The notes under the pieces were generated by a model. That model saw only the letters and a list, made by a program, of their open reading frames with translations. It made no database searches and was not told where the DNA came from. The translations under genes were made by a program, and so were the position numbers. From the NCBI GenBank assembly GCA_963842525.1, contig CAWJGT010000025.1:96001-160000 (forward strand): 64,000 bases of DNA, read 5' to 3'. The DNA is from an uncultured Holophagales bacterium. Its GTDB lineage: Bacteria > Acidobacteriota > Thermoanaerobaculia > Multivoradales > UBA5704. Positions 7,259-63,300 of this stretch are shown in pieces. Every line of letters starts with the position of its first letter. Position 1 is the stretch's first letter.

Positions 7259-8344
7259 ATGCACCCGATCCTCACGCGGGGTGGAAGCCTCGGCCTGTAC
7301 CTGCTCAGTTGGCTGCCGCTGGTGCCCCTGGCCGCGCTGCTGCTCGCCGGAGCCGGAGTCGGCTGGGGGGAGGCGCTGGCCGAGGCCCTCCCCCTGGTCC
7401 TCGTCTACGCCTACCTCTGCCTGGCGTCCTGGTACATCTGCCGGGCGGTGCCTCTGCGGCCCGTCCGGCCCTGGCGGCTGGCGGCAGCGCACGGGCTGGG
7501 GGCGGTGCTGTCGAGCGCCCTCTGGGTCCTGCTCGGCTGGGGATGGGCCGGCGTGCTGGACGAGCTGCCGGCCTTCCAAGGGGCGGGCGAGCGCTACCTG
7601 GCGGCCTCGCCCCGGCTCTACGCTCTGGGAGTGCCGCTCTACCTGCTCTCGGCCGCAGTGCACTACCTGCTCCTGGCCCTGGAGAGCGCCCGCGACGCCG
7701 AACGCCGGGCCCTGGAGCTGCGGGTCCAGGCGCGCGAGGCCGAGCTGCGGGCCCTCAAGGCGCAGATCGATCCGCACTTCCTGTTCAACAGCCTCAACGC
7801 GGCGAGCGCGCTGGTGGGAAGCGATCCGGCGGGAGCGCGGAGGATGGTCCTCCTGCTGGCCGAGCTCCTGCGGCGCAGCCTGCGCCTGGGGCGGATGGAG
7901 AGCATCCCGTTGGGCGAGGAGCTGGCGCACGCCGCGGCCTACCTGGCAGTCGAGCGGGTCCGCTTCGGCGACCGGCTGGATGTCCAGGAAGACGTGGCGG
8001 AGGCGAGCCGCACCTGCCTCGTCCCCGCGCTCATCCTCCAGCCGCTGGTCGAGAATGCGGTCCGGCACGGGATCGCCCAACTCCTGGAGGGAGGAGCGAT
8101 CAGGATCGAGGCACGGCGGTCCGGCAGCCTCCTGCGGCTGGCCGTCGAGAACCCCTGCGACCCGGACCATCCGCCGGCGCGGGGAGAGGGCATCGGGCTT
8201 TCCAATGTCGCCGCCCGCCTGCGCACCCTCCACGGGAGGGAGGCCCGCCTGACGATTGCTCCAAACCCGGGCCGGTTCCGGGTGGAGCTGGAGCTGCCCG
8301 CGGTGGAGGCGCCGCGCGAGGAGACCCCGAGAGATGCCGACTGA
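7259..8344 (+). CDS. LytS-family sensor histidine kinase
   Basis: ALKAQIDPHFLFNSLN H-box, LQPLVENAVRHG N-box, GIGLSNV G-box, N-terminal TM helices. Confidence 0.93.
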   Translation: MHPILTRGGSLGLYLLSWLPLVPLAALLLAGAGVGWGEALAEALPLVLVYAYLCLASWYICRAVPLRPVRPWRLAAAHGLGAVLSSALWVLLGWGWAGVLDELPAFQGAGERYLAASPRLYALGVPLYLLSAAVHYLLLALESARDAERRALELRVQAREAELRALKAQIDPHFLFNSLNAASALVGSDPAGARRMVLLLAELLRRSLRLGRMESIPLGEELAHAAAYLAVERVRFGDRLDVQEDVAEASRTCLVPALILQPLVENAVRHGIAQLLEGGAIRIEARRSGSLLRLAVENPCDPDHPPARGEGIGLSNVAARLRTLHGREARLTIAPNPGRFRVELELPAVEAPREETPRDAD

Positions 8345-23924: not shown

Positions 23925-24086
23925 TCCACCTGTCCACGATGGACAGTCGGTCCCGGTCTCCTGCTGTCCACCGGTCCGCGGTGGACAGTCACTGCCGGTT
24001 CCGGCGCCGCCACCAGTCCGGGTCGGACAGTTCATCCTGAGCGATGGACGGTTGCAGCCTCAGGAGGGACTGTCCGACCTGCACCG
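23925..24086. repeat. Left part of a degenerate 21-bp-period repeat array
   Basis: GGACRG at 23941, 23983, 24025 and 24046 (multiples of 21 apart), followed by CTGTCCGACC at 24070. Confidence 0.65.
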
Positions 24087-24255
24087 GGTCGTGTCCTAAT
24101 TCGATGTGGGTGCCCCAGGCATAGGGGGTGGGGGTATCGAACTACTATACCTTCCCTCTCCAGGAGGAATTTACCTCTCCGCTGACAATCTGGTAGCGGC
24201 CCGACAGGGTGTCGTTAGCACCCCGCCGGACCTACCCGAGCAAGGGAGTTACCCC

Positions 24256-24600
24256 ATGCCCGAGCAGTCTGATTCTACCCCTCCGCCCGTCCCCGAGCAC
24301 ACCGCCGAGGAGATCGCAGCGCAGATGGTCGTCAAGTGCTGCGGCTCCTTCCTCAAGACCGCCCGGCTCTGTCTCCAGGCATTGGAGGAGGAGCTGGCCT
24401 ACCCTGCCGACAGTGAAGCCATGGGAGAGTGCCGCGTCCCGCAGTCCGTTGTCTTCGCCCTTCGTGGCACTCTGGAGTGCATCCGCGTTGACGACCTGGA
24501 GCCAGCGATCCTCGCACTCGAAGAGGCAGCCGACCTCACCCCCGAGGATCTGTACGCAGAGTGGCGACGTCGGCAGGCGGAGAAAGGGGAGGAGGTCTAA
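24256..24600 (+). CDS. Hypothetical acidic helical protein (transposon cargo)
   Basis: GGGAG RBS, preceded by a leader hairpin at 24198-24232; 114 aa. Confidence 0.65.
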   Translation: MPEQSDSTPPPVPEHTAEEIAAQMVVKCCGSFLKTARLCLQALEEELAYPADSEAMGECRVPQSVVFALRGTLECIRVDDLEPAILALEEAADLTPEDLYAEWRRRQAEKGEEV

Positions 24601-24601
24601 C

Positions 24602-24899
24602 ATGGCGTGGTACCACGAGGACCGCCGCAAGCTTCTCGCTCCCGTGGGTGAGTACCGCCCGCAGAAAGTAGCCGTCACCATCCATGACACCTTCGACCAG
24701 CGCCGGCTCGACGAAGCGGCACGGCAAGCTCTGGGGAACGGTACCCCGCTTGCGAAGTTCCTCCTTTACTGCGCTGACCACGTCATCCGTCACCATCCCA
24801 AACTCAAAGAGACGTTCCGCGAATTCGAGCGGGAGCGGCGGGAAGCTCCAGGCGAAACGGAAGGCCGAAGAGGCGGAGATACCCAACCGATGGGCATGA
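24602..24899 (+). CDS. Small RHH-like protein (probable 1-nt frameshift near 24843)
   Basis: GGAGG RBS. VAVTI strand, helix, G-TPLAKFLL helix. The alternative frame ends KLQAKRKAEEAEIPNRWA* with an ATGA overlap onto the next gene. Confidence 0.5.
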
Positions 24900-25348
24900 A
24901 GACGGCCTCCTTCACTGTCAGAGCCGACGTCCGGCAATCGGCGCGCTGGAAGATGGCGGCCGAGTCCGAGGGTTTCGCTTCGGTCGGGGCATGGGCCGCA
25001 GGAGCCCTAGACGCCTATCTGGAGCACCGCAGAACCGCCGGCCGTCCTCTCCCCCTGGCTTGGCACCTTGGGCGCTTCCGCGTGCGCCTGGAAGATGGCA
25101 CGGAGCCGGAGCTGCGGGGGTGGCTCTCCAGGCCGTTCGGGATCTTCCACGGCTCGTCCGCAGGGCCGATCCCGACCGGCTCCACGCACACCTACTCCCT
25201 TGTGTTCCTGCCGGAGCGCAAGCTGCTCGCGACGTTCCGCTATGCCCGTCACTGCCGCAGTCTTGCCGGCGAGCTGGCACCTCTTCTCCTGCGGGATGAA
25301 CAGGCGGCGGCGGCTGTCACGGCGCGGCACGTCAGGGAAGCCACGTAA
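24896..25348 (+). CDS. Protein with N-terminal RHH-like domain and unknown C-terminal domain
   Basis: FTVRADVRQSARWKMAAESEGFASVGAWAAGALDAYL fits a strand-helix-helix pattern. Confidence 0.55.
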   Translation: MKTASFTVRADVRQSARWKMAAESEGFASVGAWAAGALDAYLEHRRTAGRPLPLAWHLGRFRVRLEDGTEPELRGWLSRPFGIFHGSSAGPIPTGSTHTYSLVFLPERKLLATFRYARHCRSLAGELAPLLLRDEQAAAAVTARHVREAT

Positions 25349-25356
25349 AGGACCCG

Positions 25357-25390
25357 GGGGCCGGCTTCCTAGAGGGGGCCGGCCCCTTTT
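25357..25390 (+). terminator. Rho-independent terminator
   Basis: GGGGCCGGCTTCCT/AGGGGGCCGGCCCC stem followed by TTTT. Confidence 0.75.
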
Positions 25391-25400
25391 GTCGCACCAA

Positions 25401-25430
25401 TTGACAAGCAGGGGCAAATTGCCCCATGAT
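25401..25430 (+). promoter_or_regulatory. Promoter with palindromic operator in the spacer
   Basis: TTGACA-18 nt-CATGAT. GGGGCAAATTGCCCC palindrome at 25411-25425. Confidence 0.55.
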
Positions 25431-25498
25431 GCGGCATTATGACCCAAGCTAGAACTTCGTCTCTACGGCGCCATCGACAAATGCTACCCTTCAACCCT

Positions 25499-25954
25499 AT
25501 GAGCCTGATCGACGACCTTAAGCCGCTACTCGATGAGCATACACAGGAAGCTCAGAAGGCAGAGAAGCGATGGAAAGAGCTGAGGGAGAAGTGGCTGGAA
25601 GTACGGCGCTCGGTCATCTTGCCGCCTCTGCAACAAGCAGTGCAGTTGATCGCTGACAATAATCCTCTGGGACTGGAAGCATCGGCGGACCTCGGGAAGG
25701 AAGACGAGGTCGCGCTCTACGTCAGGTATCAGACCGCTACGAAGGTTGAATATTTCCTGCGGTTTGATCTAGACGCGAGTTTCGAGATTGTCTGCTCATC
25801 CTCATTTGATGAGACCCACCCGCAACCGCGAATGCACGGACTTGACTCCGTAGACACCGCGGATATTGATGGTCGGATTGTGGATTTCTTCAAGCGCTTT
25901 TTGCTCCATCGCTCAGCGTATGATGGTAGAGGCATCCGCGAATTCACGCGGTAA
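25499..25954 (+). CDS. Hypothetical low-GC cargo protein
   Basis: 151-aa ORF with an N-terminal coiled coil, convergent with the transposase. Confidence 0.6.
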   Translation: MSLIDDLKPLLDEHTQEAQKAEKRWKELREKWLEVRRSVILPPLQQAVQLIADNNPLGLEASADLGKEDEVALYVRYQTATKVEYFLRFDLDASFEIVCSSSFDETHPQPRMHGLDSVDTADIDGRIVDFFKRFLLHRSAYDGRGIREFTR

Positions 25955-26942
25955 GCAGATCCCGCACCGTCCAGGGCTTCCTTACAATCCCTGCCTTCAT
26001 CGCCGGAGTCATCCGGATAGAGGAGTGAATCCAGGTGAAGTTGTAGGCGGCGAAGTGGACCGCCAGTGCCGCCCGCAGGTTCTCCCGCTTCCGAGAGAAT
26101 GCGTTCGTCAGTCTGGTGAATCTCCGCATCTGCATTCTGATATGGAGATTGTTCCGCTCTACATGGCTAGTGCAGATCCGATGCTCATCCGGAGTCCCCT
26201 GAATCACGATCTTCTCAGAGGCTATTATGGACGGCGGGCTGTACCGCCGTTCGCTGTCGAGTCCCTCCCCTGAGTAGGTCTTGACTAATTGTGCGTAATC
26301 GACCCGGGCACCGAGATGCCGCTCGATTGCCTCGGGATATGCCGGCCATCCATCCGTCGTGAGTTGATAGGTTTCCTGCCCGTCCTTCGCCGTTGCAGCC
26401 GTGGCGAGCTTGGCGACAAAGACCGACGTATCCTCAGAGGTCCGGTGACCCATGTGGTGAGTCAGGACAAGCTTGGACTCCCGATCGTGAGCCACGAAGG
26501 TATAGGCATCGCCGAATTCCGGGTCCGTCTCGCCTTTGCGGGCCTTTGTCTTCTCCTTCATGCCCACGAAGCACCACAGCTCGTCCGCCTGGACGTCCTT
26601 CACCGGGACGGCCCGTAGGTGCTTGCCCAGGATCGCCTCGCACTTGCCGCCCGCGAGCCGCAGGAGCCGCATGATCGTGTCCCGGTGGATTCCCGTGACC
26701 CTCTCTGTGCTCCGAATCGAGGCGCCCTCTGTCAGGAGGGACACGCAGAGGACGGCCTTGTCCAGGTCGATCCGCATCCGGCCGAGGGGGCGCTCTGGGA
26801 TGAGCCCGAACGTCGCCCCGCACGTCTTGCACTTCCGGCGCGGGTTGCCGCCCTTGTCCTTGCCCCAACCGATCGTACGACCGCCGCAGGACCGGCAGGG
26901 GGTCCCTTCGAGGGTGGGCAGGGTGAGGGTTGGGGCGTCCAT
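25944..26942 (-). CDS. IS1-family DDE transposase (single ORF: Zn ribbon + HTH + DDE)
   Basis: CRSC...CKTC zinc ribbon, GASIRSTERVTGIHRDT HTH, QADELWCFV, TTDGWPAY, TSHVERNNLHIRMQMRRFTRLTNAFSRK. Confidence 0.92.
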   Translation of the reverse strand: MDAPTLTLPTLEGTPCRSCGGRTIGWGKDKGGNPRRKCKTCGATFGLIPERPLGRMRIDLDKAVLCVSLLTEGASIRSTERVTGIHRDTIMRLLRLAGGKCEAILGKHLRAVPVKDVQADELWCFVGMKEKTKARKGETDPEFGDAYTFVAHDRESKLVLTHHMGHRTSEDTSVFVAKLATAATAKDGQETYQLTTDGWPAYPEAIERHLGARVDYAQLVKTYSGEGLDSERRYSPPSIIASEKIVIQGTPDEHRICTSHVERNNLHIRMQMRRFTRLTNAFSRKRENLRAALAVHFAAYNFTWIHSSIRMTPAMKAGIVRKPWTVRDLLTA

Positions 26943-26957
26943 GTCTCTCTTGATCTC

Positions 26958-27041
26958 TACGGACATTGTACGGACACAGTACGACTATGTCAAGGGGTTT
27001 GGACCTTGAATCTTCCGGAAGTTTTCCGTACACTGTCCGTA
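26958..27041. promoter_or_regulatory. Back-to-back sigma70 promoters with twin operators
   Basis: Minus strand TTGACA-17-TACAAT (26993-26965) and plus strand TTGAAT-17-TACACT (27006-27034). Each -10 is embedded in TCCGTACA(A/C)TGTCCGTA. Confidence 0.8.
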
Positions 27042-27235
27042 TGCCTAGATCCATGCCATCCGCCAAGGACTCCCGCCTGGAGATCCGCGTCTCTGAGGAC
27101 GAGAAGGAGCAGTTTCAGAGAGCTGCCGATCAAGACGGCCGGCCCCTGTCAAACTGGATCAGGGACCGGCTCTTGAAGGCCGTACGTGTCGAGCTGGAGC
27201 CGATCGAGCCGCCCGCCGTGAAGAAGAGCCGCTAG
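27041..27235 (+). CDS. RHH (DUF1778/MobC-like) DNA-binding protein
   Basis: KDSRLEIRVSEDEKEQFQRAADQDGRPLSNWIRDRL. ATG lies 6 nt after the -10. Confidence 0.8.
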   Translation: MPRSMPSAKDSRLEIRVSEDEKEQFQRAADQDGRPLSNWIRDRLLKAVRVELEPIEPPAVKKSR

Positions 27236-27421
27236 CCGGTATCCAGGCCCGCGGGAGGGACTTCAGGTTCAGGCCCCAGATGAATCGATGTCGGGGTACA
27301 GATCCGCCGTAGAAGTGTGCCATAGGCATCTCCGGTCTTGACTCGGAGGAAGCCATGGCTTAGGATGGCAGACGGACAGAGCTGCATCCTTGAAGCCATT
27401 TGGCTTCTCGGGTCGGTTCAG

Positions 27422-27491
27422 TGGAGCGGAAGGGAATCGAACCCTCGGTCAGGGGGTCTCAAGCCACGACCGTGGACCATCCACCCGCCCC
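27422..27491 (-). ncRNA. tRNA-like element (atypical)
   Basis: Acceptor stem GGGGCGG/CCGCTCC+A, T-arm GAGGG-TTCGATT-CCCTT, minimal D-arm GGA-TGG-TCC, long imperfect arm with a CTTGAGA loop, no CCA. Confidence 0.55.
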
Positions 27492-27507
27492 GTGTTTCAC
27501 CTAGAGA

Positions 27508-27536
27508 GCCCCGCTCCGGCGGGGTTTTCGCTTTTT
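27508..27536 (+). terminator. Rho-independent terminator
   Basis: CCCCGC-TCCG-GCGGGG followed by TTTTCGCTTTTT. Confidence 0.75.
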
Positions 27537-27674
27537 AGTCCTCCGTGGCGCCCTCCTTCGGAAGAAGTTGTAGCTTGATCTGGCGCCACAAGTCAAGCCA
27601 GAAATGAGCCAATCAGGAGAAAAGATCTGCGGTACTGACTCAGGACGTACTGAGTACGTACTCTAGGCAGGGAA

Positions 27675-28277
27675 TCAGCGGTAAGAGATGGACGGGAGAC
27701 CGATAAGCTTCTGGTGTGGCGATGGCAGGCGAACTGTCAACCTGAGCTTCAGTCCGGGGCGGTTCAGGATCGGCTTATTGTCTGCGGTTACTGCTACGAA
27801 GAAAAAGTAGCATCTTTGCTCGGAACGCGCCGGAATCGTGTACTGTCCTTCCGGGAAGTGTAAATAGTCGGCCACCCGGCCCATGGGATCAATAGCCATC
27901 CTTGGCCCGACCGTGACCGGGATGATTTTCGTCCGGCGCCACCGCGCAACATGAACCAGAGCCGGATCGGTCGGGCGTACCGTTACCGCGTTGTCCGTGT
28001 CGTTGTGTACGGCTATCAGCAGGGTGAGGTATAGGCCGTTCGGCTCGTGTCGGTCCTCTTGCCTGAACTCTGCTTGGGTGACTTGGGCATTGAAGGTCAC
28101 ACGGCCCGCTCCCGTCTTTTTTCGGCGAAGGTCAGGCCAGAATCCCCACAACAGGCATGCCGCGACACCTACCAGGGAGACCGCCGCTTTGACCAGATCT
28201 TCGGTCACGGCGTACACCGTTGCCACGGCCGTACAGGCGAGCCCAACGGCGGTAAGACGCCGAGTCTGAAGATCCAC
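27675..28277 (-). CDS. Hypothetical membrane-anchored cargo protein
   Basis: Two N-terminal TM segments followed by a beta-rich domain. TATACT lies 6 nt before the GTG. Confidence 0.65.
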   Translation of the reverse strand: MDLQTRRLTAVGLACTAVATVYAVTEDLVKAAVSLVGVAACLLWGFWPDLRRKKTGAGRVTFNAQVTQAEFRQEDRHEPNGLYLTLLIAVHNDTDNAVTVRPTDPALVHVARWRRTKIIPVTVGPRMAIDPMGRVADYLHFPEGQYTIPARSEQRCYFFFVAVTADNKPILNRPGLKLRLTVRLPSPHQKLIGLPSISYR

Positions 28278-28356
28278 GGGAGGAGTATAATTAGAGGGCG
28301 GTTCCAGCTCTTCAACTTACGCCTCTGTACCACCTACATCGAATTAGGACACGACC

Positions 28357-28590
28357 CTGCACCGCGATCTGTCCGTCCTGCGCTGGAAACCGTCCGACCC
28401 GCGGAAGAGACTGTCCGACCTGCGCTGGAACAGTCCGTCCCACGGAAGAGACTGTCCGACCTGCTGCGTCAACCGTCCGACCCGCACGGCGAACTGTCCG
28501 ACCTGCAGGAGAAACCGTCCGTTCCGCAGGTCCAACTGTCCATGGACCACAGCCGTTCGCGCCAGGATCGGGGCCGACTGTCCGGTGCGG
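28357..28590 (+). repeat. Right part of the 21-bp-period repeat array
   Basis: About 9-10 units beginning C(T/C)GTCCG(A/T)CC, e.g. CTGTCCGACCTGCAGGAGAAA. Confidence 0.8.
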
Positions 28591-29329: not shown

Positions 29330-30142
29330 TTACCGCCCCTTCCAGGGTTCGCCGGGCAACCGGGTGAGCAGGGCTTCTTGAATCTGCCGCGCAGCTTCTT
29401 CCAGATTCCAGTCGACCCCTGAGGAAAGAAGAGGGGCCAAGTCCTGGGTGAAGACGGGGTCCTCGAGCTTTGCCAAGAGGTTCGACTCAAACTCAGCCCT
29501 GGAGATCCGTGTTCCGCCCCGATTTGTATATTCCAGAAAGCAATGGACAATCCTCTCCATGTTCGCTCTCTCCTGCCGGAGAGCGAGCCAGAGATCAAAA
29601 AGATCTCTGCTTTTCCTCCGCTGATAAAGAGCCCTCAGCTTGGTTCCCAGAAGCTCGTCCAGACAGAAGCTCCGAATGTTGGCGTCTCCCGAGAACCAGC
29701 GCGAGCGGACCTCAAACCGGTGTTCCTCCATATCAAAGACTGAGAAGTGTTCCCGTGAGTTGATCTCTACCTTGAGCCGCATTGGCAAGACCGGCGGCCC
29801 TTCGGATTGCATCCTGTACGTCAATGCGACCCGCCCTTCTCCAAAGCTCCGCTTGGGAAACCCCAACCAGGGATCGAGCGCTCCACGGATCGCGGTCAAA
29901 ACGGGACCGATCGGCTCTGGCCGTACCTGCACGAGGTCGATGTCTTCCGAATATCGAAACCCTGGTCGGAGGTGCAGTTTGTAGATTGCAGTCCCGCCGC
30001 GGAAGACCAGGGCATCGGCAATCTCCGGCCGGCTGAACATCTCGACGAGCGCGCGACAAATGATCAGGTCCTGTTCGACCTGAATGTCCCGGATCCAAGG
30101 CGCGTGTTGGCGCCACTCGGTGATGAAAGCAGCGGGGATCAG
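29330..30142 (-). CDS. AbiEii nucleotidyltransferase toxin (type IV TA), probable CTG start
   Basis: QVEQDLII, VFRGGTAIYK, RYSEDIDL, KLRALYQRRKSRDLFDL. The frame is open to a CTG overlapping the abiEi stop. Confidence 0.88.
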   Translation of the reverse strand: MIPAAFITEWRQHAPWIRDIQVEQDLIICRALVEMFSRPEIADALVFRGGTAIYKLHLRPGFRYSEDIDLVQVRPEPIGPVLTAIRGALDPWLGFPKRSFGEGRVALTYRMQSEGPPVLPMRLKVEINSREHFSVFDMEEHRFEVRSRWFSGDANIRSFCLDELLGTKLRALYQRRKSRDLFDLWLALRQERANMERIVHCFLEYTNRGGTRISRAEFESNLLAKLEDPVFTQDLAPLLSSGVDWNLEEAARQIQEALLTRLPGEPWKGR

Positions 30143-30921
30143 AGCTCGGCCTCAACCGTGGTGTTGACGGCCACCTTCCAGCGAGGGTCGCGAGGGGTCC
30201 CTCTCATCGGGGTGGCCGGAGCGAGGGGGGTCACGTGAGGGGCCTTGTCCGCCACGAGCCCGGCAAGAGCACCCGCGGCTTCGGTCGCTCCCAGGTGGTC
30301 CAGGAGATAGCCCAGACGCTGTGCCCAGGGTAGCGGCGAGAAGCGGGCGGCCTCGGCAAGCCGGTCCGGGTCGAGAGTCTCCGCCAGACTGGAAAGCACG
30401 GTCGCGACATTGTCCAGGCCGGCGCAGTGCTCCGGGTAGCCCACCAGGTCCAGGGCTGTCGCTTCAGAGGTAGAGACCCGGATAGTGCCCCGAGGGGTGT
30501 TGAAGAGCCGGACCGGGATTTCGTGGGCGTTGTTCCGCGCGATGAAGGCAACCTGGACTTGGCCGCAGTCCACGGCTGGGCGGTTCCTCTCGGTGATCAC
30601 CTGCAACTGCTGGGGGCTGTGATGGGCGGCGCCGTAGTACTCGGCAGCGCTGAGGAGCCCGACATAGTAGGGCTCGCCTAGGTGCCCCATGAGCTCATCG
30701 AGGAACTGCTCCCCCGGGAGGCAGCCGATCCGCCGATACTCTGGCGGGACGATGACGTAAAACCCCCGGAACGGCACTGCGATCTCGCCCTTCCGCATGA
30801 GCCGGCGCAACGCGGCACGCACGGCTGGGAGCGATACCCCCAAAGCGCTGGCAGCCTCTTCTGTGGTGAAGCAATACCGCCCGAGGGAGGCTAGAATGGC
30901 AATGTACTGAGCGGTGGTCAT
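30139..30921 (-). CDS. AbiEi antitoxin (type IV TA)
   Basis: N-terminal wHTH (GRYCFTTEEA), GFYVIVPPEY, YYVGLLSAAEYYGA, VSTSEATALDL. Confidence 0.88.
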   Translation of the reverse strand: MTTAQYIAILASLGRYCFTTEEAASALGVSLPAVRAALRRLMRKGEIAVPFRGFYVIVPPEYRRIGCLPGEQFLDELMGHLGEPYYVGLLSAAEYYGAAHHSPQQLQVITERNRPAVDCGQVQVAFIARNNAHEIPVRLFNTPRGTIRVSTSEATALDLVGYPEHCAGLDNVATVLSSLAETLDPDRLAEAARFSPLPWAQRLGYLLDHLGATEAAGALAGLVADKAPHVTPLAPATPMRGTPRDPRWKVAVNTTVEAEL

Positions 30922-30943
30922 GATGAGCCTCAAAGATGACTCC

Positions 30944-30972
30944 ACAAATGTAACACTTGGCGTTACTTTTGT
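30944..30972. promoter_or_regulatory. Imperfect inverted repeat, candidate AbiEi operator
   Basis: ACAAATGTAACAC-TTG-GCGTTACTTTTGT just upstream of abiEi. Confidence 0.5.
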
Positions 30973-31039
30973 CGAGCGATCTTCATCCGACGCCAAGGCA
31001 CAACCTGTGGAATCATAGGAAAGCCTGGGAGCCAACCTC

Positions 31040-31516
31040 ATGGACAAAGACCAGATCCTCCGCGACCACCACCTCGAGCTGCTGCGAGGCAGCAGCGCCC
31101 ATGCCGACTTCGACACCGTCATCAAGGGCATCCCGCCCGAGCTGCGCGGCAAGAAGGCACCGGTCCTGCCGCACACCCTCTGGCAGCTCCTCGAGCACCT
31201 CCGCATGGCCCAGTGGGACATCCTGGACTTCAGCCGCAATCCCGATTACGCCGCGCTCAAATGGCCCGACGACTACTGGCCCGAGGCCGAGGCCCCGCCG
31301 GATGAAGCCGCCTGGGATCGCAGCGTCGAGGCGTTCCGCCGGGATCTCCAGGAGATGAAGGATCTGGTGGCCAATCCGGAGACGGACCTGTACGCAAAGA
31401 TCCCCTGGGGAGAAGGACAGACGATCCTCCGGGAGGCGATGCTGGTGGCGGACCACAACGGCTACCACCTGGGGCAGATGGTGTCGGTGCGGCAGGGGTT
31501 GGGAGCGTGGGGGTAG
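31040..31516 (+). CDS. DinB-family protein
   Basis: HTLWQLLEHLR, YWP, LREAMLVADHNGYHLGQ. Confidence 0.88.
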   Translation: MDKDQILRDHHLELLRGSSAHADFDTVIKGIPPELRGKKAPVLPHTLWQLLEHLRMAQWDILDFSRNPDYAALKWPDDYWPEAEAPPDEAAWDRSVEAFRRDLQEMKDLVANPETDLYAKIPWGEGQTILREAMLVADHNGYHLGQMVSVRQGLGAWG

Positions 31517-60340: not shown

Positions 60341-63300
60341 TCATTTCGGGGGGGTGGCGACCAGCCGCAGGAGCTCGCGGCCGTACTTGGTGACGATCGA
60401 TGGGCCGATGCCGGAAACGTTCAGCAGCTCCACCTCGTCCTGGGGCCGGGTGGAGGCGAGGGCGTGGAGCGCCCGGTCGGTGAGGATGCGGAAGGCGGGC
60501 AGCCCGCGGCGCTGGGCTTCGTTCCTTCGCCACGCCTTGAGGGCTTCGACCAGGGCCGGCAGCGGCTGGTCGAGGAGTTCTTCGGCGCCGGGGAGCGCCG
60601 ACTGAACCGGCTTGCCGTCGCGGGAGCGGGCCGGCTGCGGCCCGGAGTCCTGCTCTTTCCGAGATCTGGCAGTCTTCTTCTCCCGTTTCCTCGACGGTGG
60701 ATCGGGCTCCAGGGTGAGGGGCACGAGCAGGGCGGCGTCCGGTCCGCCGTGGAGGCCTTCGTGCGTGAGCGCGGCGCGCTGGAACCGGATCAGCTTCCCC
60801 TCTTTTTCGAAGGAGTCCTCGCGGATCTCGACCAGGCTGGCGCGGGTGAGCCCACCCAAAAGGCGGTCGAAGGCCTTGCGGGCGGCGGCCAGGGCGGCGG
60901 GAGAAGCGCCGTCGCCATTGCCGTTTCCGGAAAGCTCGCGGAAGAGCTGGCCGGTGCTCTGGCCGTCCCGGCGGCGCAGCGCGCGCAGAATCCGCTCCAG
61001 GTCCCGCGCCTCGTCCGGCGTGGGGAGGTGGAAGTGGCGGACGGCGCAGGCGGCCGTGGCGCAGACGTCGCAGATGCCGCAGGCCTGCCCCGAGTCCTCC
61101 TGGTCGCCGAAGTGGCGGACCAGATGGAGCATGCGGCAGCCGTGGGAGGTGGCGAAACGCACGATCTGGTCGAGCTGGGCGAGCCTGTGGTCGCTCTGTG
61201 CCTGGTAGGGCCGCTGCCAGGCGGCCTCGCCGCGGCTGACGTTGCCGTCGGCGTCGACGCGGGCGCCGCGATGGATCCAGAGCTTTTCCAGCGCCTTTTC
61301 GAAGACCTCCCCGTCGAGGTCGAGCTTCCGGCGGATCTTGTCGCCCGGCAGGGGCTCGGGGCCCAGCATCCGGAAGATGCCGTCCAGGACGTGCTGCTCG
61401 GGATAGTCGCGAGTATGGAAGAACTCGTGGTTGCGGCGGTCGGCCCAGGAGAAGAGGAGGATGGCGCGGGACGGCTTGCCGTCGCGGCCGGCGCGGCCGA
61501 TTTCCTGGTAATAGCCCTCGACGCTCCCCGGCAGGCCGGTGTGGATCACGGTGCGGACGTCCGCCTTGTCGACCCCCATGCCGAAGGCAATCGTAGCGAC
61601 GATCACCTCCAGCCGGCCGGCGAGGAATGCGGTCTGGACGCGGTCGCGCTCGGCGCCGGTCATCCCGGCGTGGTACGCGGCGGCCCGCATCTCGGCCCGC
61701 AGCTCCTCGCCCAGAGCATCCGCCTCCTTGCGGGTCGGGGCATAGACGATAGCGGGCAGGCGCCCCTCCGCGGCGAGGACCTGGCGCACCATCGCCCGTC
61801 GCTCCGAGGGGCGCAGCTCGGCCACCTCGACGGCGATGTTGGTGCGGCGGAAGCCGTGGATGAAGCGGCCCGGGGTCTGCAGGCCGAGCTGGGTCGAGAT
61901 GTCGTCCTGCACGACCGGCGTGGCGGTCGCGGTCAATGCGATGACCGGCGATGGGCGGAGCAGCGGGAGGCGCTGGCCGAGCATCCGGTACTCGGGCCGG
62001 AAGTCGTGCCCCCACTGCGAGATGCAGTGCGCCTCGTCGACCGCGACCAGCGCCGGCTTGCGCTTGGCGAGCATCTCGGGGAAGCCGGGCACGGCGAGGC
62101 GCTCGGGCGCGATGAAGAGATAGTCGAGCCGGCCGGCCAGGTAGTCGACGCAGGCCTGGCGCGAGGACGCCCGGTCGCGGCCGGAGTGGATGCGCTCGGC
62201 CCGCAATCCCACCTCGCGCAGCTTGGCGACCTGGTCCTCCATGAGCGCGATGAGGGGCGAGACCACCAGCGTGACGCCGCCCCGCGCCAGACCCGGGAGC
62301 TGATAGCAGAGAGACTTGCCCGCCCCGGTAGGCATGACGAGGAGGACGTCACGCCCCTCGGTGACCGCGCGGCAGACGTCCTCCTGGAAGGGGCGGAAGG
62401 ACTGGAGGCGGAAGGCGTGGCGGAGGAGGTCGTGGAGGTCGCGGCTGCGTGGACCCTCACCCCCCTGGCCCCCCTCTCCCATCCGCACTCCCATTCCCCC
62501 GGGAGAAGGGGGAAGAGGCGTTCTGTCGCCCCTCCGGGGCTCGGAGATGTTTTGGCGGGCCTCCTCCCCGGGGCTTACGCCCCGGGCTACGTTCTGTCGC
62601 CCCTCCGGGGCTTTCTCCCCCTCTCCCGGAAGGGTGGGAGTGCGGATGGGAGAGGGGGCCGGGGGGTGAGGGCTACGGGTGGGGGCGCCCACGACTTCAC
62701 TGACATACGCCTCGATCTCCTGGAGGAAGCTCGCCAGCTCTCCCTGCCCGCGCTGGATGCGCTGGAGCTGCGCCTCCCACTGCCCGGTCATCGCCGGGCT
62801 CTTCACGTGCGGATGGACGATCTGGATCAGCCGGACCCCCTTGTCCGTGGCGTGCAGGGCCTTGCCCTGGCGCTCGATATAGCCACGGCGCAGCAGGGTC
62901 TCGATGATCTCCGCGCGGGTGGCCGGCGTCCCCAGGCCGCTCTCCTTCATCGCCGCGGAGAGCTCCTTGTCGTCCAGGGTCTTACCGGCCGTCTCCATGG
63001 CCGTCAGCAGCGTGGCCTCGGTGAAACGCTTCGGCGGGCGGGTCTGCTTGGACACGGCCTTCGCGTCGAGCACCCGTTGCGGCTGCCGGGCGGCGAGGCC
63101 GGGCGGCAGATCTTGGGATTCGTCGGCCTCACGATCCTCCACCTCCCCGTCCTCTTTCTTCTCCTTGTCCTTCGACCGGTCCTTCCTCTTGAGCTCGATG
63201 TCCAGGACCTTCCAGCCGGCCTGCTCCACCGCGGTCCCGCTGCTGTGGTAGCGATCCACAGGCCGGAATGGGATTCGTGCTCGTGATGGCCGTGATCACC

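Follow-up and report, generated by a model that had tools for sequence, protein, structure and literature searches.

The 64,000-nt window analysed here (contig CAWJGT010000025.1, positions 96,001 to 160,000 of the forward strand; assembly GCA_963842525.1 of an uncultured Holophagales bacterium) contains a 4270-bp IS1-family transposon (24087-28356), within which lie a 70-nt tRNA-like element (27422..27491, minus strand), recognised by its sequence, fold, homology and covariation, and a long imperfect hairpin (27340..27414, minus strand). The transposon is bounded by terminal inverted repeats of 26-27 nt that are 96% complementary to each other, GGTCGTGTCCTAATTCGATGTGGGTG at one end (24087..24112, plus strand; it begins GGTCGTGTCCTAATTCGATGT) and the complement of a GGTCGTGTCCTAATTCGATGT-type end at the other (28331..28356, minus strand), and the 8-bp direct repeat CTGCACCG flanks both ends (24079-24086 and 28357-28364). 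Target duplications of 8-9 bp are typical of IS1. Around the stop codon of the transposase no inverted repeats were detected; the ends were located using the repeat sequence supplied by a sister clade. Repeats and duplication together establish what an earlier note on this DNA, made from the letters alone, had proposed: that the tRNA-like element and the hairpin are carried inside a transposon and are co-oriented with its transposase. Because of these classical ends, an RNA-guide (bridge or omega-like) role is rejected as unsupported.

The transposase (25944..26966, minus strand) is a single-open reading frame (ORF) DDE enzyme of the IS1 family (PF03400, 2.9e-08, 34.6 bits against a cut-off of 24.1) with N-terminal zinc-finger-like CxxC pairs and a likely start at 26942 (MDAP...); homologues on plasmids are annotated "IS1 family transposase". 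A ribbon-helix-helix (RHH) gene (27041..27235, plus strand; NikA-like, 3.3e-06; TacA1 and RHH_5, each 2.5e-04) is oriented antisense to the transposase and converges with a small ORF of 54 aa (27159..27323, minus strand). The divergent control region (26958..27041) holds the transposase promoter, TTGACA-17-TACAAT (26993-26965, minus strand; 11 of 12 consensus matches), and a 17-nt palindrome pair (TACGGACATTGTACGGA and TCCGTACACTGTCCGTA, 94% complementary) that overlaps both the transposase -10 box and the start of the RHH gene and is probably the operator for the RHH protein. Two passenger genes (379 and 171 aa; 24209..25954, plus strand) belong to no Pfam family and are syntenic with the transposase in many relatives.

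Read on the minus strand, 27491-27422 consists of GGGGCGG, a D-like hairpin, a long bulged hairpin, GAGGG-UUCGAUU-CCCUU, CCGCUCC and A, with CUG following to 27419. The acceptor stem (GGGGCGG/CCGCUCC) has 7 bp, includes G3:U70 and is followed by discriminator A (A73); the D-like hairpin has 3-5 bp and a UGG loop; the central arm is elongated and bulged (5 bp, an internal loop, then 2 bp) with the loop CUUGAGA; and the T-arm is canonical. This is the 70-nt fold described earlier, with its 7-bp acceptor, discriminator A and canonical T-arm all present; it is a cloverleaf, and the cloverleaf is the minimum-energy fold of the 73-mer (-32.1 kcal/mol). The four helices abut with zero linker bases, and position 8 is a paired G.

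In canonical numbering a tRNA has U8/N9 and N26 linkers, a variable region, a 5-bp anticodon stem and a 7-nt loop. The element shares with canonical tRNAs the 7-bp acceptor, the 5-bp T-stem and a T-loop of the GTTCGAnTC type, and its sequence contains the alanine identity set (G3:U70, A73). ARAGORN called two tRNAs over the window (tRNA-Asn and tRNA-Ser) and none at 27419-27491; Rfam at gathering score gave three matches over the window, none at the element and none to RF00005. The lack of a call by either program, the missing linkers and variable bases and the elongated central arm rule out a canonical tRNA, as the earlier note had anticipated in calling the element non-decoding and in expecting a pseudo call or none from such searches. 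In E-value mode the best sub-threshold match was mascRNA-menRNA (29.3 bits against a cut-off of 42.5). The tmRNA model RF00023 reached 26.1 bits against a cut-off of 47, aligning only the acceptor and T-arm; aligned end to end it skips the middle of the model, 35 nt standing in place of 328 model positions. The same 26.1 bits is the best tRNA-clan score at the element, for which the tRNA cut-off is 29. With that score below the tmRNA cut-off and the true tmRNA of the genome located elsewhere on the same contig (C25:27584-27939, 168.4 bits), a tmRNA fragment is also ruled out.

Descent from tRNA-Ala and conservation in the leader

Over the 27 nt that make up the T-arm and the 3' acceptor strand, the element is identical to the host tRNA-Ala(GGC) on contig C1 at 26 positions, the T-arm itself being identical throughout, and to a tRNA-Ala(CGC) in genome G055 at all 27. 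At acceptor pair 6:67 the host tRNA-Ala(GGC) has C-G and the element G-C, a change on both sides. To judge by its sequence, the element is derived from tRNA-Ala, with the acceptor/T-arm half retained and the other two arms not tRNA-like. The earlier note had taken a match with the 3' half of a host tRNA or tmRNA as the mark of a simple att-site remnant. Such a match is present (26/27); a simple integrase att remnant is nevertheless rejected, because a 5' acceptor strand with the compensating 6:67 swap is present too, and because the element lies inside the transposon inverted repeats and not at an island border and has homologues at the same internal position in other genomes. No integrase family was matched among the scanned ORFs of the transposon.

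The genome carries three complete elements of this transposon family, each with its own 8-bp duplication and with mutual identities of 74-87%; the two diverged paralogues lie at C9:1428911-1433571 and C25:397346-401417. Where the C9 paralogue reads GGGGCTCTCT directly followed by AACCGA, the window copy has 84 additional bases (27419..27502, minus strand), made up of an 11-nt linker (AGGUGAAACAC), the tRNA-like element and CUG. Homologous tRNA-like elements occupy the same leader position in L023 (genome G035; same family, other genus) and in the metagenomic contig L124, where, as in the window, the GC hairpin stands on one side and the long hairpin on the other, and the same small ORF follows downstream; L124 also has a linker homologous to AGGUGAAACAC. 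Read by eye, the outer central stem is GGUCG/UGACC in the window, GGCUG/UGGCC in L124 and GGCGU/GCGCC in L023. In that order, pair 3 is U-A, C-G and C-G, pair 4 is C-G, U-G and G-C, and pair 5 is G-U, G-U and U-G, so that pairing is preserved through changes at three central-stem positions. T-stem pair 49:65 is G-U in the window and G-C in the other two. Just upstream of the element, 25 open codons (...LLPKEGATED and stop; window 27538-27612, minus strand) form a remnant that resembles the C terminus of an AlpA-family gene still intact at the corresponding position in L124 (PF05930, 2.2e-14).

Recurrence in related transposons and covariation of the fold

Metagenomes were scanned with a pattern that combined the T-arm with the unusual G8 acceptor start, and 70 loci were retrieved. 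In 11 of them, representing nine distinct elements, an IS1-like transposase lies directly downstream (tblastn; L079, L081 and L092 are one sequence and were counted once). Same-family inverted repeats (GGTAGTGTCCTAATT) enclose the tRNA-like element, transposase and passengers in all five complete copies examined (L092, L134, L080, L100 and L132). One further locus, L107 (oriented 8200-8331), is a deletion derivative in which the right inverted repeat follows the tRNA-like element after ~50 nt and there is no transposase.

A set free of this pattern bias was drawn from the 30 best transposase matches among 401 Acidobacteriota genomes, of which 29 were analysed (L180, from the unpublished genome G338, was omitted). 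A tRNA or tRNA-like element lies within 300 nt upstream on the transposase strand in 6 of the 29; by a rough estimate, not a computed test, the chance expectation for this is well under 1% at ~50 tRNA genes per 5 Mb. Four loci (L158, L175, L179 and L183) have upstream model matches on the transposase strand at E < 0.001, ARAGORN reports irregular tRNAs within the same distance and on the same strand in L171, L174 and L179, and inverted repeats enclose the tRNA in L158 and L174 as well. In the Planctomycetota loci L065, L067, L068, L072 and L074, which belong to the same transposase family, either allo-tRNA-like elements of 93-98 nt, which have a UAU anticodon loop and a long variable arm, or look-alikes that bear a T-loop stand ~450 nt upstream on the transposase strand, with a small opposite-strand gene in between. 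The T-arm of L067 is interrupted by a ~220-bp insert with inverted ends. The IS1-like loci on four alphaproteobacterial plasmids gave no tRNA-like element at E up to 5 (best score, 13.7 bits).

Across the family, G3:U70 and A73 are retained on five unrelated acceptor sequences: GGGGCGG and, from loci chosen independently of the pattern, GGGGGCG (L154), GGGCCAC (L158), GGGCCGA (L179) and GGGGGTG (L183). G3:U70 is present in 54 of the 55 aligned family members; the L154 row is misaligned at pair 3:69 in one alignment, the pair there being G3:U70 by eye. CCA is encoded in four relatives (L158, L179, L183 and L100, read by eye). The anticodon-like loop varies, being CUUGAGA in the window and L124, CUUGGCA in L023 and CUYUACA or CUUUAGA elsewhere, and position 37 is often C. 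The suggestion that the element is a decoy for anticodon nucleases finds no support in a loop that is not conserved among relatives. Rfam has no family for the relatives L098 and L092.

To measure covariation, a covariance model was built on eight sequences and matches were aligned to it. In the 13 transposase-linked elements, 92.1% of cells pair and 13 of 22 pairs have changed on both sides; the covariation score of 0.407 (shuffled mean, 0.120) was reached by 0 of 500 shuffles, a test that related sequences inflate, and slid controls gave at most 0.14. The alignment of 55 family members took 47 of the 70 metagenomic loci, with 23 excluded as duplicates (L081, L092, L101, L105, L121, L123, L128, L130, L139 and L148), as canonical tRNAs by eye (L085, L089, L091, L119, L135, L137, L138, L142 and L144) or as tmRNA-like matches of 78-79 nt (L095, L111, L120 and L145). 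Here 92.4% of cells pair, 15 of 22 pairs have changed on both sides, and the score is 0.403 against a shuffled mean of 0.101, again reached by 0 of 500 shuffles. Covariation is informative in the D-like arm, in the central arm and at T-stem pairs 49:65 and 50:64, and every one of these shows changes on both sides. Covariation of the cloverleaf is strong. The compensatory changes that the earlier note had asked for among homologues are thus found, in an alignment that is fitted to the model, was retrieved by pattern and is uninformative over part of the stems. Pairing falls from 92.4% on the sense strand to 82.9% on the complement, which marks the sense (minus) strand as the one that folds.

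Leader hairpin, small ORF and a putative antisense RNA

The long hairpin of the small-ORF leader is present as first described and is more stable than its shuffled counterparts (-34.1 kcal/mol, z = -4.57). In single-sequence folds, a long hairpin is found in all 15 homologous leaders, with differing sequences and z scores from -1.2 to -6.7; RNAalifold on a MAFFT alignment of the leaders gave only three pairs. Since it occurs in 15 of 15 leaders, 12 of them without the tRNA-like element, the hairpin is an independent module, and the idea that it is a product released by the element is not upheld. The small ORF downstream has a Shine-Dalgarno GGAG at 27333-27330 and 15 homologous peptides; the conserved core in the 15 loci is the first 27-31 aa (...RPxYRWxxGLLLxSLPRRFIP), and an anti-Shine-Dalgarno CUCCG is able to pair with the GGAG.

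The promoters and terminator described here are consensus matches only. A sigma-70-type promoter-like site on the opposite strand, TTGACT-17-TAGGAT (27338..27366, plus strand), emerged from a consensus scan that found two sites against 0.2 expected. Situated in the base and 3' arm of the hairpin, it is directed across the tRNA-like element to an intrinsic-terminator-like hairpin with a U-tract (27504..27539, plus strand), found by scan and by partial Rfam terminator matches, ~140 nt beyond. The most conserved letters of the hairpin, ATCCTA and GTCAAKAC, correspond to TTGACY-17/18-TAGGAT on the plus strand and are kept in 14 of 15 leaders; AAAGCGAAAA and the GC-stem block of the terminator-like hairpin are conserved in relatives. 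A promoter-like site facing a terminator-like hairpin implies an antisense RNA across the element, with a predicted length of ~85 nt in most elements and ~165 nt in the window copy, where it would be longer because the complement of the tRNA-like element must be crossed. The same terminator-like hairpin may also end the RHH transcript. In the sister clade, a near-consensus sense promoter and an opposite-strand hairpin with a U-tract lie upstream of the tRNA-like element, and an opposite-strand TATAAT just downstream of it (all read by eye). A small ORF, a structured leader and an opposite-strand promoter and terminator give, by their motifs, a layout like that of a type I toxin-antitoxin locus or an antisense-controlled leader peptide.

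On the sense strand, the candidate promoter proposed earlier, TTGACT-18-TACAAC, does exist as a sequence (27567..27596, minus strand), inside the AlpA-like remnant; it is weak and fails the rule of the promoter scan. A T-box-like pairing of the anticodon-like loop with the leader was also considered and rejected: it would have 4-5 bp (CUUGA/UCAAG) and is inconsistent in the sister clade.

In another reading the plus strand itself would be the functional one, the segment being the body of an antisense small RNA and the cloverleaf only giving loops for sense/antisense kissing. IS10 RNA-IN/RNA-OUT is a precedent for sense/antisense control of this kind, the plus-strand promoter and terminator motifs are conserved, and in the sister clade the putative antisense RNA is almost wholly the complement of the tRNA-like element. 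On the complement, though, the G-U pairs, the invariant G3:U70 among them, turn into A-C mismatches, with the loss of pairing given above; the T-loop consensus and A73/CCA become meaningless; and the antisense unit occurs without the tRNA-like element in 12 of 15 leaders of this clade. We regard a plus-strand function as very unlikely.

A transposon-borne tRNA mimic and its precedents

The anatomy of the element, its homology and covariation, its position inside the transposon and its recurrence in related transposons are shown here, and it is probably a working RNA part of the transposon rather than debris. The acceptor/T minihelix, G3:U70, A73 and CCA are features recognised by RNase P, 3' processing, the CCA-adding enzyme and alanyl-tRNA synthetase (AlaRS), and G3:U70 is effective in minihelices as well. 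The element and its relatives preserve the minihelix with G3:U70 and A73, and in some cases CCA, but not position 8, the linkers or the anticodon arm. G3:U70 is described as the major AlaRS determinant in PMC7609411. The explanation that we favour, at somewhat less than even odds, is that the element acts as an excised, probably alanine-accepting, non-decoding tRNA mimic and as a leader-processing signal. Processing by RNase P/Z, which the earlier note suggested, is plausible.

Transcription, processing, alanylation and the antisense RNA are here inferred from sequence. In the proposed scheme, the element would be transcribed from the minus strand in the leader of the small ORF, upstream of the RHH gene and the transposase. 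The enzymes of tRNA maturation would recognise the acceptor/T minihelix, with RNase P cutting before G27491 and 3' trimming followed by CCA addition. A stable RNA of ~70-73 nt would thereby be excised, probably chargeable by AlaRS, and the same cuts would detach the upstream leader from the hairpin-small-ORF mRNA. The convergent antisense RNA, running on the plus strand from the promoter-like site at 27338-27366 to the terminator-like hairpin at 27504-27539, would cover the element and counteract it.

Several observations weigh against this scheme. The element has no variable region, and CCA is not encoded in the window copy, where CUG comes next; lacking linker and variable bases, the RNA may not adopt a canonical L-shape. 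For the 73-mer, the fold energy is ordinary (z = -0.88; 41 of 200 shuffles fold equally well), so the case for more than chance rests on homology, and covariation is uninformative in the acceptor stem, the T-loop and three T-stem pairs, which the retrieval pattern fixed, and leans toward the model elsewhere, the alignments being fitted to their own model. The promoters and terminator invoked have the standing of motifs, as stated above. As the transposase promoter lies downstream of the element, the element is not in the transposase mRNA. Among the three elements of the genome it is confined to the window copy (one match in a whole-genome model search); with 3 of 15 aligned leaders of this clade carrying it, it is dispensable; and model matches occur in 3 of 151 genomes sampled from the class. 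The seven sequencing runs listed with this sequence, at shares of 0.04-0.05, include none of RNA.

Some of these points would suit a decaying relic, a functionless pseudo-tRNA derived from tRNA-Ala and left in the leader, perhaps brought with the AlpA-like fragment. The unremarkable fold energy, the 26/27 identity to the 3' part of the host tRNA-Ala, the absence from 12 of 15 leaders and from both paralogues, and the truncated AlpA-like remnant just upstream here, where L124 has an intact AlpA gene, all agree with it. A relic is nevertheless hard to reconcile with a whole cloverleaf that three diverged lineages have preserved through two-sided changes of its pairs, with tRNA-like elements recurring in a second and a third clade of the transposon family, with G3:U70 retained on unrelated acceptor stems, or with a location inside the inverted repeats and not at an island border; we consider it improbable.

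Another reading is a free-standing cargo RNA, an alanine-charged mimic acting in trans on host machinery, whose position in the small-ORF leader would be incidental. Such an RNA might miscode, bind the ribosome, EF-Tu or AlaRS, or be a decoy for toxins that target tRNA, and the antisense RNA would then be its dedicated antagonist, the two forming an RNA-only module of a toxin/antitoxin-like or sensor kind. A separate transposase promoter lies downstream of the tRNA-like element here and, as read by eye, in L154/L175, L171 and L096; some relatives have a near-consensus promoter ~50 nt upstream, and a TATAAT on the opposite strand immediately past the element; four relatives encode CCA, and G3:U70 stands on five acceptor sequences; and many anticodon-like loops contain UUA or CUA. 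In the work of Mukai et al. (PMC5389517), two of six converted allo-tRNA(UAU) variants killed Escherichia coli. Against a cargo role, the central arm exceeds an anticodon arm in length and C is frequent at position 37, which makes decoding unlikely; the variable loop speaks against a specific anticodon-nuclease decoy; and no partner protein is consistently linked. We judge this role unlikely, if somewhat less so than a relic.

Returning to the mimic that is excised and also marks the leader for processing, its nearest analogues are tRNA-like processing signals such as MALAT1 mascRNA, the t-elements of plant mitochondria and the C4 RNA of phages P1/P7, which RNase P processes. With these it shares a compact cloverleaf in a longer transcript, in which cuts by RNase P/Z would set the ends of the neighbouring RNA; it differs in having no homology to them and in its bacterial transposon context. 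G3:U70/A73, together with the CCA encoded in relatives, suggests that the excised RNA itself matters. The tRNA-like domain of tmRNA and the alanine minihelix have in common with it a GGGGC... acceptor, G3:U70, A73 and the T-arm, whereas the window element has neither the mRNA-like part nor the pseudoknots of tmRNA. IS10 RNA-OUT and type I toxin-antitoxin loci such as tisB/istR exert antisense control of a transposase or a small ORF, and they resemble the present locus in the long structured 5' region, the outward promoter with intrinsic terminator and the short cis-antisense RNA; here the antisense unit is deduced from motifs alone and would contain the complement of a tRNA mimic.

The link between allo-tRNAs and transposons drawn by Mukai et al. 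in 2017 (PMC5389517; review, PMC7609411) is the closest precedent. Irregular tRNAs of Acidobacteria are described there, among them an allo-tRNA(UAU) pseudogene that overlaps a transposon-related ORF, allo-tRNAs with G3:U70 and clusters near toxin-antitoxin genes, and a link with transposable elements is suggested; allo-tRNAs are defined by a 12-bp acceptor branch (8/4 or 9/3), a long variable arm and a D-stem that is long and capped by a tetraloop. The window element resembles the allo-tRNA(UAU) pseudogenes and irregular tRNAs in being non-decoding, in coming from soil Acidobacteria, in adjoining or overlapping a transposon-related gene and, for some of them, in G3:U70; likewise, planctomycete relatives of the window transposase family have allo-like UAU elements upstream, as in the allo-tRNA system. 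It differs from allo-tRNAs in its 7/5 branch, its length of 70 nt and its lack of a long variable arm and of linker bases. An allo-tRNA is ruled out on these grounds, since an 8/4 branch would need a G8-U pair, there is no variable arm and only the short-looped D-like hairpin is similar. The available passages of the two papers do not mention the compact linker-less form, a tie to an IS1 clade with defined ends, the 84-nt difference between paralogues or a convergent promoter and terminator. Beyond PMC5389517 and PMC7609411, literature searches yielded no tRNA-like elements in IS1 elements, although Supplementary Figures S5/S6 of PMC5389517 may show related ones.

The window element is ordinary in origin, coming from tRNA-Ala, and unusual as a selected, transposon-borne tRNA mimic of the alanine type. 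In bacteria, non-decoding tRNA-like elements kept by selection are rare and mostly of unknown role; this one comes as a small system, an 84-nt insert that a single genome carries in just one of its three paralogous transposons. If it is processed and charged, it offers a testable case of a mobile element using the tRNA-maturation and aminoacylation machinery of its host for its own control, and a genomic explanation for the irregular Acidobacteria tRNAs near transposon-related genes. More speculatively, and improbably as matters stand, the IS1 clade might carry a self-contained module of alanine-accepting mimic and antisense RNA, tied to host tRNA processing and charging, that serves as an RNA-only addiction pair or as a sensor of translational state gating the transposon genes.

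Other tRNA-like sequences came to light in the metagenome scan. In L084, L098/L121, L112/L148, L083, L103, L131 and others, the surroundings of the element are housekeeping genes (for TsaE, chaperonin, polyprenyl synthetase, thymidylate synthase and a class II aminoacyl-tRNA synthetase); these elements are ~67-72 nt long, have G3:U70 and frequently encode CCA. No Rfam family matches them, and in L098, L112 and L083 the flanks are able to pair as a stem enclosing the element. The 78-79-nt matches L095, L111, L120 and L145 have a tmRNA-type 5' end (GGGGCGGGAAGGTTTCGAC) joined by one helix to a tmRNA-type 3' end and look like the tRNA-like domain of tmRNA minus its coding part. Two copies per contig, in tandem or close together, occur in L114 (571-715), L090 (2270-3030), L122 (4567-4988) and L087 (2040-2343) and recall the "polycistrons of irregular tRNAs" of the literature.

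Around the transposon, REP-like GACTGTCCGACC and GGTCGGACAGT motifs are repeated on both flanks (24013-24087 and 28370-28515), and it appears to have landed in a cluster of REP-like repeats. An AbiEii/AbiEi toxin-antitoxin pair lies just beyond it (29330-31239), and an Acido-Lenti-1 RNA (62567-62612; 58.6 bits) lies close to the end of the window.

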